A DNA stretch of 51,904 bases, taken from Reclinomonas americana ATCC 50394 (taxonomy: Eukaryota). Positions 3,991-46,536 of this stretch are shown in pieces. The first letter of the stretch is position 1. Each line of letters starts with the position of its first letter. Below the pieces are notes generated by a model. That model made no database searches, was not told the DNA's origin, and saw only the letters and a program-made list of their open reading frames with translations. Location of the stretch: contig PS015451.1 of NCBI GenBank assembly GCA_048213135.1, forward strand, positions 8,443 through 60,346, in the 5' to 3' direction. The position numbers were made by a program, and so were the translations under genes.

Positions 3991-6507
3991 TCAGATGCGA
4001 CTGTCGCCACCGCCGGAATGCGCACCACCCGCTGGTTGCTGGCCGGCTCGCTCCTTGATGATGTCGAGCGCGGCGAGGGCACCCGCATACGCATTACGCA
4101 TGGTAAATCGCTCCATCACCACGCGGAATTCGTTGCGTTCCTGCGAGCGGAGAGGGGAAGGGTGAGCACAGCGGGAGGGGGGAAAGCAGGAGGGTGTGCA
4201 CGTACCAACACGCCGTTGTTGTTGGCGTCGACAGATCTGCGGGGGGCGAAGCGAGAGAGGGGGTGAGCATCAGTTTGTTTCACAACAGGCTCACTTCACA
4301 GACTCTGGAGCGCACTCTCTCTCTCTCTCTCTTGCTCACTCTCTCACTCTCTCTCGCTTGCTCCCTCTCTCTCTTTCCTCCCCCGCGCCACGCACCTGAT
4401 GACCTGGTTGACAATCTCTTTTGTGGGCTCCGGTAGCGTAAGCGACGAGTCGACCTTCTTGAGCTCCTTGACGGCCACTGCACAGAACAATCAGCAGGGT
4501 GGCACAGATCGGTGAAAAAAGGTAGCCAACGCAACGTTGATGCAATCCACGCATGGCCTCAAGCACCTCATTGTTGTCCAGTGCGCCGCTCGAGTCCTGC
4601 GGTGAGCGTGTGTATGTTAGAGAGGGTGGGAGACGGGGAAGAGGGAAGGGAGAGAAAAAGGCGCACCTTGTCGTACTTGTTAAAGGTGGTTTCCACTTCC
4701 TCGGCGAACTTTGGTGACTGAATGACCATGGCCATCAAGTCTGTGGAGGTGAAGGAGGCGGAGGGTTAGGTGGAAGCGAAGGGGGGCGAAGGAGGTGCAG
4801 GAAGGAGGCGATGAGGAGACGCGGGCGCAGTTCGAGGGAAAAGGAGACGGGATAGAGAGCGACAAAGCGACGAGAACGAGAAAAAATGAGCGGAGGGTGG
4901 CTACTGTTGGCGGGCACTTGCAGGAGAGCAAGGACGAGGAAAAGGCGAGGACGTGAGCAAGAGACCGCAGTATGCAGGCGGAGGAAAAGAAGGCACTCGC
5001 AGGTGAGCGAGGAGGAGAAGTGAGGAGACGAATGAGAACGAGCAGAGGAGAGCGGCGAGAGGCATCGAGGAAAGCAAGATGTAAGCGGAGGAATACATGC
5101 GCGCAAGAATGTACTCGCGGGAGAACGAGGGGAGACGAAATGAGAACGAGCAGAAGTGAGCCACTAGGGACGTCGAGGAAAGCAAGATGCAGGCGGAGGA
5201 AAAGACGGCACTCGCAGGTGAGCGAGGAGGAGAAGAGAGCAGACGAAATGACAACGAGCAGAGGTGAGCGGTAAGATGCAGACGCAGGTACGCGCACAAA
5301 AAGGCAGCGAGGACGAGGAAACGGCGAGGAGAAGAAATGAGAACGTCAGGAGGAGAGAGCGGCAAGATGCAGACGGAGGATCATGCAAACAACAAGGCAC
5401 TCACTGGGGAGTAAGGACGAGGAAAACAAGAGGAGACGAAATGCGATCGAGAAGAAGGGATCGGCAAGGGACCTCGATGAAAGCAAGATGCAAGCGAAGG
5501 AAGACATGCGCGCAACAAGGCACTCGCGGGAGAGCGAGGACAATGAATGGTGAGAGACGAAATGCGAACGAGAAAAGTGAGCGGCAAGGGGCATCGAGGA
5601 AAGCAAGATGAAGGCGGAGGAATACATAAGGTACTCGCAGGAGAGGAGATGAGCGGACGCCAAAAATCGGAGGAATACAAGCTAACAGGTCACAACGCCG
5701 CAACAGAGTGCACAAACAACAAGAGAATGAGTAGGGGCAAGCAACACCACAAAAGCAAGCTGAGCAAGAAGAAGGCAAGCACAAATTGGGTCAGCGCGGA
5801 GGAATACACACACAACATCGCAACCCGTCCACTCACGCCGCACACAGCACACGAGGAGCAATCACACACACAGAGACAGTGAAAGACAGAGAGGAGAGCG
5901 CGCGCGAGAGAGAGAGAGCATGAGTCATATCGCATTCATGACATGCATGAAACAGACATGAAAGACGCCATGAGACACGAGCAGACACAAGAGAAAGAGA
6001 GAGAAAGTGAGTGAGTGAGAGAAAGAGAGAGGAGGAGGAGGAGGAGAAGAAAGAAGAAGAAGAAGAAGAAGAAGAAGAAGAAGAAGAAGAAGAGCAAGAA
6101 GAAGAAGAAGAAGAAAGACAATGAGAACAAGAAGGAGAAGAAGAAGAAGTAAGACAATGAGGAACAAGAGGAAGAAGAAGAAGAACAAGAAGAAGATGAC
6201 GAAGGTGAAGGAGGTGGAGGGAAAGGAGGAGGAGGAGGAGAAGGAGGTGCAGGGGAAAGAAAACGAGACCGGAAGAAGAGCACGATCGTCAGTGACTCCC
6301 TCACCGGAACTCATTGCTCACACGCTGCGGATCAACGCCCAGAGAGGCAGCTAATGATGCATTCTCCTCGTCTTCTGTGGGCGGAGGCGGAGGAGGCGGA
6401 GGCGGAGGAGGCGCACTGCATGACAGAGTTAGGCATCGACTTTAGGCGCGCATAGGCGTCGCCTTAATGCCACGAAACTCGACTTGTGCTGCCTGTTCCT
6501 CCTCCAT
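3991..6507 (-). CDS. EF-hand calcium-binding protein with N-terminal polyproline
   Basis: Spliced product contains two canonical EF loops (DKDSSGALDNNE, DANNNGVLERNE) split across exons at 4740-4667, ~4597-4536 and ~4235-4205. ATG 6507, stop 3991-3993. Confidence 0.8.
4860..5824. repeat. Degenerate tandem repeat (~110-130 nt units) inside intron 5824-4741
   Basis: Recurring GAGGAAAGCAAGATGCAGGCGGAGGAA, CACTCGC and GAGACGAAATG blocks. Confidence 0.85.
6045..6245. repeat. (AAG)n/(GAG)n microsatellite in intron
   Basis: Direct trinucleotide runs. Confidence 0.9.
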
Positions 6508-6666
6508 GCTCACAAACAACGCAGAGTGAGCGAGCGCGATTTGTCTTTTGTCTCTTTTTGTGTCTGTGTGTGTGTGTGTGTGTGTTCCGCGCGGGCTTTT
6601 CCAGTGGCACACACATTGTGGGAAGTTGGGAGTGTGGTGGGCGTCACACACTCACTCACACACACA

Positions 6667-45351: not shown

Positions 45352-45616
45352 GATGTTATATTGATGACGGGTCGGGTGCGGTCACCACCAATACTCTCTT
45401 GATGAAATTAGACACTCACGCCGTCACGAGTGTGGAGAGGCGGGGCGAGAGAGAGTGAGAGAGACGCGCACACACGCACGCAGAGCACACAAAAGGCGTG
45501 TAGTATTCGTGCACGTGTGTGAAAAAGGAGAAAGTAGGAGGGGACAATGGACAGTTGCGTGCTCGCGAGCTACTAGCACTAGTGCACTCAACCCCGCACG
45601 CGCACACTCTTCTCTC

Positions 45617-46536
45617 ATGGAGCACCTCCGCACGGTTTTGATTGGTGAGCACGACTGCAAAATAGCAGCTTAATGTGCGCGTGCGTGCGTGCGTGTGCAT
45701 CTTCCACTGACGTCACTTTACAAAAAAAATGCAGGTCCGCCCGGTTCGGGCAAGGGCACGCAGGCGCCTCGTCTGCAGCGCGACTTTTGCGTGTGCCACC
45801 TGGCCACTGGCGGTTGCGTCTCTCTCTCTCTTGTCTCCCACTCTCTCTGTTTGTGTGGCGACATGGCACGCGCTGATTTCCGACCCCGTTTGTTTTGTTT
45901 TTTTTTTTTGGTTTGCAGACTTGTTGCGTGCGGCGGTGCGCGAGGGCACTCCGCTCGGCAAGGAGGCCAAGGCGGTGATGGACCGCGGCGAGCTGGTCTC
46001 GGACGAGATTGTCATTGGCATTGTCCGCGACAACCTCGATCGCCCCGATTGCAAGAACGGCTTCATTCTCGACGGCTTCCCGTTGCGTCTCTCCATCCCC
46101 CACACCCTTTACATAATGAACGCTCACACTGTACGTGCACACGTTGCATAGACGCACGGTGCCGCAGGCGGAGAAGCTTGACTCGATGCTGGCGGAGCGT
46201 CAGCAGCCGCTGGACCGCGTCATTGAGTTCAACGTCGACGACGAGACGGTGGTGTCGCGCATCTCTGGCCGCATGGTGCACCCGCCCTCGGGTCGCTCGT
46301 ACCACAAGCTGTTCAACCCGCCGCGCGTGGAGGGCAAGGACGACGTGACGGGCGAGCCGCTGATTATCCGCGACGACGACAAGGAGGAGACGGCGCGCAA
46401 GCGTCTCGGCCAGTACCACTCGCAGACCATCCCCGTGCTCGACTACTACAAGGCCCGTGGTGTGCTGTCGCGCATCAACGCCAAGCAGGCCATCAACGCC
46501 GTCTACGCCGATGTCTTGACCTCGCTCAAGAAGTAA
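45617..46536 (+). CDS. ADK: Adenylate kinase (AK2/ADK1 long type)
   Basis: [46 protein letters not shown]. Three introns. Confidence 0.97.

Follow-up and report, generated by a model that had tools for sequence, protein, structure and literature searches.

What reads a 5′ splice site when an extra T seems to stand behind its GT? The question is raised by a 51.9-kb stretch of eukaryotic nuclear DNA from Reclinomonas americana ATCC 50394 (contig PS015451.1, positions 8,443 to 60,346; hereafter the window). Ordinary intron donors in the window read, for example, GTGCGT or GTGAGT. Others read GTTGCGT, with the same motif placed one base further into the intron, and we call these donors and their introns shifted. 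Are such introns really cut in front of that GT, how common are they, and what recognizes them? The class exists, it is frequent, it is cut before the GT, it has lost the G of the last exon position (−1G), and its 3′ features are common with those of ordinary introns. As to recognition we lean, if not strongly, towards the view that these are ordinary GT-AG introns whose 5′ signal lies one base deeper, the donor-reading RNA most likely binding one position downstream. The basis throughout is one 52-kb window, four homology-fixed junctions and gene models made in this analysis.

Where the introns are cut

Protein homology fixes four junctions of shifted introns: two in an adenylate kinase (ADK) gene, one in a short-chain dehydrogenase (SDR) gene and one in an eIF4E gene, where the exon end only is fixed. 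They are listed here with the ordinary first intron of ADK; the donor-free parse is a gene finder that is described below.

45645..45734, plus strand: ADK intron 1, ordinary donor G|GTGAGC; homologue alignment
45813..45918, plus strand: ADK intron 2, shifted GTTGCGT, 106 nt, phase 1; homologues and donor-free parse
46082..46151, plus strand: ADK intron 3, shifted GTTGCGT, 70 nt, at the GFP|RT junction; homologues and donor-free parse
16749..16814, plus strand: SDR intron, shifted GTTGCGT, 66 nt, in frame and stop-free; homologues
15000..15079, minus strand: eIF4E intron 3, shifted GTTGCGT, 80 nt; end of homology, splicing by eye and donor-free parse

The spliced ADK protein aligns without gaps to 12 homologues (12 among the 120 listed), and the invariant Asp of the TGD(L/M)LR motif arises only when intron 2 is cut as GT...AG. 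An intron 2 that starts one base later (TT...) was considered and ruled out; it would turn the invariant Asp into Gly. For ADK intron 3 and the eIF4E intron the later start gives the same residues, and protein sequence alone is compatible with both cuts there.

The SDR intron is in frame and stop-free, so that an open frame alone cannot decide its case. Homologues are informative: none of the intron-less ones aligned (16 of 80 loci) has the 22 residues that read-through would add, and the spliced sequence HPGI-VNSSVMRHLPWP aligns with HPGV-VASDIWRRVPWP of the homologues. In eIF4E the last codon with similarity to solved chains (query residue 45) is the one preceding the GT. The ribosomal protein gene eS4 shows how ordinary donors behave. 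Its four introns are all ordinary and all preceded by −1G (GTTTGT, GTTCGT, GTGAGT and GTGAGC), and its spliced protein is gapless against 10 homologues (10 among the 120 listed).

Three junctions had been named in the initial annotation (ADK GFP|RT, ADK ATG|DLL and SDR HPGI|VN), and the homologue alignments confirm each of them. Judged by these sequences, the shifted introns appear to be GT-AG spliceosomal introns cut before the GT, with junctions that restore the frame or the homology.

Donor classes in the window and its genes

The shifted motif is abundant in its own right. GTTGCGT occurs 32 times in the window, as against 13.13±3.84 times in 100 dinucleotide-preserving shuffles, none of which reaches 32. 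The ordinary 7-mer GGTGCGT (exon G included) occurs 37 times against 11.68±2.90. An absence of enrichment beyond base composition, raised at the outset as a possible refutation, is not what these shuffles show. Among the 32 copies of GTTGCGT, 28 lie in sense orientation in confident gene models, two are antisense and two are intergenic or in low-confidence models; of the 28 in sense orientation, all but two are called donors.

Gene models were made in two ways. The donor-free parse comes from a Viterbi gene finder written to avoid circularity, in which the sole requirement of a donor is GT; beyond that it combines an acceptor matrix with models of 3-periodic coding and of intron composition and a prior on intron length. 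Earlier finders that lacked the acceptor model and the length prior fused adjacent introns and missed short exons, and were discarded. The donor-free parse gives 182 introns on both strands and recovers 18 of 24 hand or homology introns exactly. Its commonest donor 7-mer is GTTGCGT (16/182), where all GTGCGTN pooled come to 18. Unsupervised expectation-maximization (EM) clustering of the 182 donors, with positions −3 to −1 and +3 to +10 as input, returns two motif classes and a background. The ordinary class has a weight of 0.54 (−1G 0.56, +5G 0.82, +6T 0.63) and the second a weight of 0.21 (+3T 0.75, +4G 0.73, +5C 0.67, +6G 0.85, +7T 0.72, −1G 0.07).

The self-trained parse comes from a finder that learns a two-profile donor model over four rounds. 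It gives 171 introns, retains 20 of the 24 hand introns and has GTTGCGT as the donor of 28 of the 171. A parse of this kind can reinforce its own motif, so the key counts were repeated in the donor-free parse or with no gene model at all. Counts use the 162 introns (of 171) whose gene models reach a coding score of 39 or more, the other nine being dropped. We define a shifted donor by T at +3, G at +6 and a base other than G at +5, and an ordinary donor by G at +5.

Self-trained parse: 162 introns, 115 ordinary, 37 shifted, 10 other
Donor-free parse, same genes: 163 introns, 87 ordinary, 28 shifted, 48 other

The shifted class makes up 17–23% of modelled introns. It is strongly stereotyped (+4G 0.84, +5C 0.82, +6G 0.96 and +7T 0.91, with 0.54, 0.46, 0.93 and 0.71 at the matching ordinary positions), which fits compensation for lost pairs. 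Splitting the donor logo by the +3 base, as had been proposed, gives the expected picture when run on the gene models: GTT donors have +6G in 38 of 58 cases and +5G in 20 of 58. With no donor model, +6G is found in 29 of 49 GTT donors. G at +5 is present in 22/23 donors with A at +3, 65/69 with G and 8/12 with C. Left in the transcript, 31 of the 37 shifted introns would disrupt the frame, 20 through an in-frame stop and 11 through a frameshift; among ordinary introns this holds for 102 of 115. Homology, the donor-free parse and EM clustering agree on a second register that is frequently used, cut before the GT and marked by +6G and +7T.

Three further donors have +6G and do not have +3T: GTGGCGT (43380-43451, minus strand), GTGACGC (9722-9781, plus strand) and GTGTTGT (35260-35331, minus strand). 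Two of the three keep −1G; they may be ordinary donors with a +5 mismatch, or belong to another register.

Apart from their donors the two classes are hard to tell apart. Parse and hand sets combined hold 108 ordinary and 35 shifted introns of up to 200 nt; in these the median length is 70 nt for ordinary and 69 nt for shifted introns (p 0.83), base composition and the YGCAG acceptor are alike, and a CTRAY branch-like motif is present in 30/108 and 9/35, respectively. The classes are also mixed within single genes, with ordinary to shifted counts of 51/16 in a large gene, 14/4 in an MFS transporter gene and 1/2 in ADK.

The initial annotation had listed 25 sites with shifted motifs. All are present on the strand given, one of them (44512) really being at 44513.

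8156, 15079, 16749, 22120, 26150, 31262, 31408, 32429, 42820, 43089, 44513, 44740, 44951, 45813 and 46082: the 15 sites that are donors by hand or homology reading or in the donor-free parse
4535, 6478, 6898, 7440, 12724, 18746 and 41560: the seven sites that are donors in the self-trained parse only

Site 4535 also reads well by eye; the donors at 6478 and 18746 carry doubtful introns of 647 and 280 nt. The other three listed donors (5824, 11944 and 12560) are in neither parse. Two of them, 11944 and 12560, lie beside a gap of N and look like good donors by eye; 5824 is without support.

In the large gene, twelve consecutive introns read by eye give an open frame of ~560 residues, and 8 of the 12 have +6G in a hand set that was chosen with an eye on donor-like motifs and is a biased sample. 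Introns of this and other genes are as follows.

44441..44513, minus strand: large gene, shifted T|GTTGCGT; hand-read chain and donor-free parse
43226..43293, minus strand: large gene, shifted A|GTTGCGT; hand reading and donor-free parse
43017..43089, minus strand: large gene, shifted A|GTTGCGT; hand reading and donor-free parse
42733..42820, minus strand: large gene, shifted C|GTTGCGC; hand reading and donor-free parse, lost in the self-trained parse
43531..43606, minus strand: large gene, shifted T|GTTACGT; hand reading and donor-free parse
44889..44951, minus strand: large gene, shifted A|GTTACGT, 63 nt; hand reading only
44666..44740, minus strand: large gene, C|GTTTCGT, 75 nt, in frame and stop-free; hand reading only
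44331..44405, minus strand: large gene, ordinary G|GTGCGT for comparison; hand reading and donor-free parse
32355..32429, minus strand: large gene, shifted A|GTTACGT; donor-free and self-trained parses
31194..31262, minus strand: large gene, shifted T|GTTGCGT; donor-free and self-trained parses
31345..31408, minus strand: large gene, shifted T|GTTGCGA; donor-free and self-trained parses
26082..26150, minus strand: MFS-type gene, shifted T|GTTGCGT; donor-free and self-trained parses
22063..22120, minus strand: gene at 17170-22359, shifted A|GTTGCGT; donor-free and self-trained parses
4478..4535, minus strand: EF-hand gene, shifted C|GTTGCGT, 58 nt; frame kept by eye, self-trained parse only
11875..11944, minus strand: EFHB-like gene, likely shifted A|GTTGAGT; by eye only, in neither parse

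The intron at 44666..44740 is the sole frame-keeping one of four donor and acceptor pairs tried, and read-through stays open too. In the EF-hand gene the donor-free parse uses a GT at 4550 instead, with the acceptor unchanged. Many shifted junctions were misplaced by the donor-free parse and by a single-profile parse.

The genes that carry these introns were placed by Pfam matches on open frames. The window has ~56% G+C, rising to 81% at the third codon positions of conserved exons, and its introns are very dense and short, mostly 60–110 nt.

Plus strand: RGS-domain gene; Pfam
Minus strand: EFHB-like gene; Pfam
12943..14737, plus strand: ribosomal protein eS4 gene; Pfam and homologues
14920-15731, minus strand: eIF4E gene; Pfam
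15974-17085, plus strand: SDR gene; Pfam
Minus strand: MFS transporter gene; Pfam
29523..45351, minus strand: large gene with a GPS motif; Pfam GPS match and gene model
Plus strand: ADK gene; Pfam

The model of the large gene encodes 3571 residues and has 70 introns (16 shifted, 51 ordinary and 3 other). Its protein has a signal peptide, a GPS motif (Pfam) encoded around 32858-33406 and, by eye and with no family search, NHL-like repeats near the N-terminus. Internal repeats, sought in the 3571-residue protein to compare paralogous intron positions, were not found at E≤1e-3. The closest protein matches have 62% identity to an ADK exon and 73% to an eS4 exon, and the EFHB fragment had no match in the protein search. 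Against metagenome contigs the SDR reaches 47% at best, mostly on long, apparently prokaryotic contigs.

The eIF4E (minus) and SDR (plus) genes are divergent neighbours with start codons ~240 bp apart, and the 5′ leader of SDR may hold another GTTGCGT intron at 15870-15965, predicted in both parses. The first coding exon of eS4 is its ATG only, followed by a 616-nt intron (12946-13561) that is by far the longest confirmed intron of the window. Tandem repeats rich in purines, with units of 108 and 120 nt (2.8 and 2.0 copies, 73–79% matches), occupy 4972-5627 in plus-strand coordinates and are followed by an (AGA)n run at 6045-6204; both lie upstream of the small EF-hand gene (minus strand), where the gene models place long doubtful introns. 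Tetranucleotide (GTAC)n runs are found at 1-92 and at 12208-12270, the latter beside an N gap at 12287-12479, and introns often contain long (CT)n, (GT)n and (AAG)n microsatellites.

The exon side and the reading of the donor

The exon side of the junction separates the classes sharply. In the self-trained parse −1G is present in 97/115 ordinary and 2/37 shifted donors (Fisher p 1e-18). The same is seen in the donor-free parse, which is blind to −1 (56/87 and 2/28, Fisher p 5e-8), and in the hand set (12/12 and 1/11, Fisher p 1e-5). Without any gene model, G precedes 2 of 32 copies of GTTGCGT and 37 of 100 copies of GTGCGT (p 6e-4). The T at +3 is not itself the cause of this loss, since GTT donors with +5G (GTTCGT, GTTTGT) keep −1G in 18 of 21 cases.

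What stands at −1 of a shifted donor (T15 A11 C9 G2) resembles what stands at −2 of an ordinary one (T40 A33 C30 G12; chi-square p 0.78), and shifted −2 matches ordinary −3 in the same way (p 0.33). On this correspondence, both classes are one 8-letter signal, H-G-[G/T]-T-G-C-G-T, cut before whichever GT is present. With a bulged U, exon −1G would still pair with C9 of the U1 small nuclear RNA (snRNA); −1G is lost, and the exon side favours a shift of the whole register over a bulge. Of the earlier suggestion of a second register read by bulge-tolerant or variant U1/U6 snRNAs, the register itself is supported and the bulge tolerance is disfavoured (−1G in 97/115 ordinary but 2/37 shifted donors).

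The explanation towards which we lean could work as follows. Ordinary donors have the sequence H-G|G-T-G-C-G-T and the second class H|G-T-T-G-C-G-T, 8-mers that differ only at their third letter (G or T), so that relative to the GCGT anchor the exon of the shifted class ends one base earlier. The donor-reading RNA, which we infer to be U1, would bind one position downstream. To our knowledge U1 is the first RNA to read the donor in all known systems. Intron +1G would then take the usual place of exon −1G opposite U1 C9, +2U would face C8 as a mismatch, +3 to +7 would supply the remaining pairs, and the catalytic core would afterwards cut at the GU.

How well would standard U1 manage this? We paired donors with the standard U1 5′ end AUACUUACCUG (given in the available text of PMC4856993) using ViennaRNA duplexfold, a model that leaves pseudouridines and U1 proteins outside.

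Ordinary donors, n=116: mean −6.37 kcal/mol, +1G partner C8 in 110/116
Shifted donors, n=40: mean −0.95 kcal/mol, +1G partner C9 in 4/40 and C8 in 2/40
Random unused GT sites, n=1499: mean −2.57 kcal/mol

Shifted donors are stable with this U1 end in no register. Because they form weaker duplexes than random GT sites, a plain shift of standard U1 would, in this model, fail to account for the class on energy grounds. Such poor pairing could mean either that the U1 of this lineage differs or that other factors carry recognition.

Base preferences opposite U1 nucleotide 5 bear on the first option. That nucleotide would face +4 in ordinary donors (C 0.46, T 0.25, A 0.24, G 0.05) and +5 in shifted ones (C 0.82, T 0.16). 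In most eukaryotes +4 is A-rich, unlike in the ordinary donors here. The preference C>T>A>>G in both classes would fit the pattern expected opposite G, not opposite U or pseudouridine, and an altered U1 with G opposite ordinary +4 and shifted +5 could suit both. The preference of ordinary +4 for C over G also fits simple G+C pressure. By way of illustration, and not as evidence, a hypothetical U1 end with G and C at positions 5 and 6 brings shifted donors to −6.66 kcal/mol, with C9 on +1G in 19/40. In the same illustrative spirit, adding A at position 8 gives −10.41 against −4.4 at random GT sites, with position 9 on +1G in 39/40. Rfam found no snRNA gene in the window at gathering scores, nor any even at E≤1, where only sub-threshold microRNA and snoRNA matches appear, mostly on simple repeats. 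The prior for an altered U1 in this lineage is low, because the 11-nt U1 5′ end is, in the available part of PMC3033335, identical to the consensus even in GC-rich algae with odd donors.

A fuller version of the shift, in which U1 or a paralogue has G opposite ordinary +4, with tolerance or an A at position 8, in which two registers are used genome-wide for about a fifth to a quarter of introns, and in which the extra U is accommodated at the handover to U6, we put forward tentatively, as a proposal that may well prove wrong.

Several observations weigh against reading the class as a simple downstream shift. The weak pairing is the first: standard U1 holds shifted donors less well than random GT sites (−0.95 against −2.57). 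A shifted standard U1 should, moreover, prefer GTTAAGT or GTTGAGT, but GTTGCGT dominates (28/171). The depletion of −1G goes beyond mere loss of selection, at 2/37 where codon-position composition would give ~30%, and the shift accounts for it solely through the parallel with ordinary −2. Downstream exons open with G after 4 of 37 shifted introns and 47 of 115 ordinary ones (p 6e-4), a difference on which the shift is silent. Finally, all junctions are read from DNA, most of them through the gene models of this analysis.

The difference in the next exon recurs in the donor-free parse (32/87 ordinary and 4/28 shifted, p 0.03) and ties the 5′ class to 3′ exon context. Shifted −1 is rich in T, found in 8 of 11 phase-0 cases where third codon positions have 17% T. 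Shifted introns are spread more evenly over the phases (11/14/12, where ordinary ones give 58/40/17; p 0.026). Together, G depletion at −1 and in the next exon and the flat phases might mean that these introns arose differently, or that exon contacts (U5) are class-specific.

Four other explanations were weighed against a downstream shift. The one that survives best invokes a dedicated second U1-like snRNA, whose 5′ end would be complementary to GUUGCGU (A at position 8 is one such possibility) and which would work with an otherwise common spliceosome. We judge it unlikely while giving it real weight. A dedicated RNA would explain why so many shifted donors are GTTGCGT (28 of 37, provided that all 28 donors of this sequence in the self-trained parse sit in confident genes), why standard U1 pairs with them worse than with random GT sites, and why the classes are sharply bimodal, with just 10 'other' donors in 162; the hypothetical motif-complementary end, at −10.4 against −4.4 kcal/mol for random GT sites and with position 9 on +1G in 39/40, illustrates the fit. 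The match of shifted −1 to ordinary −2, however, needs no second RNA, and 3′ signals, length and composition are alike in the two classes, unlike in the U12 system. The consensus-identical U1 5′ end of algae with unusual donors, in the accessible part of PMC3033335, speaks against it as well.

A historical mark is improbable in our view: the shifted introns would have been made by an intron-spreading mobile element with GTTGCGT at its end. The different exon context and flat phases (11/14/12 against 58/40/17), G depletion on both exon sides and the stereotyped 7-mer would all follow. Yet intron interiors give blastn-short matches in 19 of 595 shifted pairs (3.2%) and 205 of 5778 ordinary pairs (3.5%), the top matches being overlapping models or GT microsatellites. 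Since interiors share no sequence beyond chance, the shifted introns, as far as the window shows, do not form a young family of such elements. They do not differ from ordinary introns in length or composition, target-site duplications are not visible, and such an origin addresses where the introns came from, not how they are recognized.

Slightly less probable still is a bulged register, in which C9 on −1G and C8 on +1G pair as usual, one U of +2/+3 bulges, and +4 to +7 pair like +3 to +6 of an ordinary donor. The motif is indeed the ordinary one plus a single U, and this register is validated for some human donors in the available text of PMC4856993. It predicts that −1G is kept, but −1G is found in 2/37, 2/28 and 1/11 shifted donors and 2/32 raw copies, and the optimal duplex with standard U1 has C8 on +1G in 2/40 shifted donors.

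That there is no real class, only a composition effect or a gene-model artefact, is very improbable: most junctions do come from an ad hoc gene finder whose self-trained version can amplify its own motif, and 7 of the 25 listed sites are donors in that version only, but the shuffle enrichment, the sense to antisense ratio of 28:2, the homology-fixed junctions, the donor-free parse, EM clustering and the model-free −1 counts all speak for a class.

Comparison with known systems

Human shifted and bulged U1 registers have so far been studied as rare exceptions, single sites at a time. If the pattern in the window holds genome-wide, it would offer thousands of natural test cases for cut-site fixing that is independent of the first recognition step, and a way to test directly if the nearly invariant U1 5′ end can co-evolve with its targets; the organism could serve as a natural test case for spliceosomal cut-site choice. 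Rewired donor reading, if true, would amount to a natural alteration, of a rare kind, in an RNA sequence that is among the most conserved of eukaryotes. In practical terms, gene predictors with a single donor profile will mis-annotate such genomes. Text searches of the papers available, which miss sequence logos, turned up no lineage described as having a major class of shifted donors.

A second donor class of other organisms is that of U12-type introns, which like the shifted class is stereotyped and interspersed with ordinary introns in the same genes. Unlike U12-type introns, the two classes here agree in acceptor, length and branch-like motifs. GTTGCGT does not resemble the U12 consensus for donor and branch.

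Large departures from the textbook donor are known elsewhere. Aureococcus has 22.1% GC-AG introns and a standard U1 5′ end, as the available text of PMC3033335 has it, and some tunicates have mostly non-GT/AG introns, according to the accessible part of PMC13326754. The window resembles both in the large share of introns that depart from the textbook; on those same partial sources (PMC3033335, PMC13326754), Aureococcus and tunicates change the terminal dinucleotide, whereas the introns here retain GT-AG and have the remainder of the signal moved by one base.

In human, Roca and Krainer 2009 reportedly counted a few dozen purely shifted sites. Human shifted-register donors are known, rare exceptions in the available text of Tan et al. 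2016 (PMC4856993), which reports Roca and Krainer 2009, and validated noncanonical U1 registers together come there to 1.5% of 201,541 human donors. What the human sites have in common with the class described here is, on that text (PMC4856993), the cut at GU with consensus G at +6 and U at +7, and they need no −1G either, the test oligonucleotide having A before GU. The differences are of scale and of pairing. Human shifted sites are rare and the class here is 17–23% of modelled introns; human sites pair with standard U1 over a long stretch, +4 to +9, and GTTGCGT offers no such stretch (comparison limited to the available text of PMC4856993). The human bulge +2/+3 register, with 68 donors predicted and 54 after curation in the part of Tan et al. 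2016 at hand (PMC4856993), likewise has a GU and then an extra U before the consensus, but it keeps the −1G:C9 pair as described there, and −1G is nearly absent in the shifted class of the window.

The form of the register shift is thus known from human. What is new is its use by a fifth to a quarter of introns, with a motif that standard U1 should not bind, and the near-loss of −1G in shifted donors, which fits a shift of the whole register.

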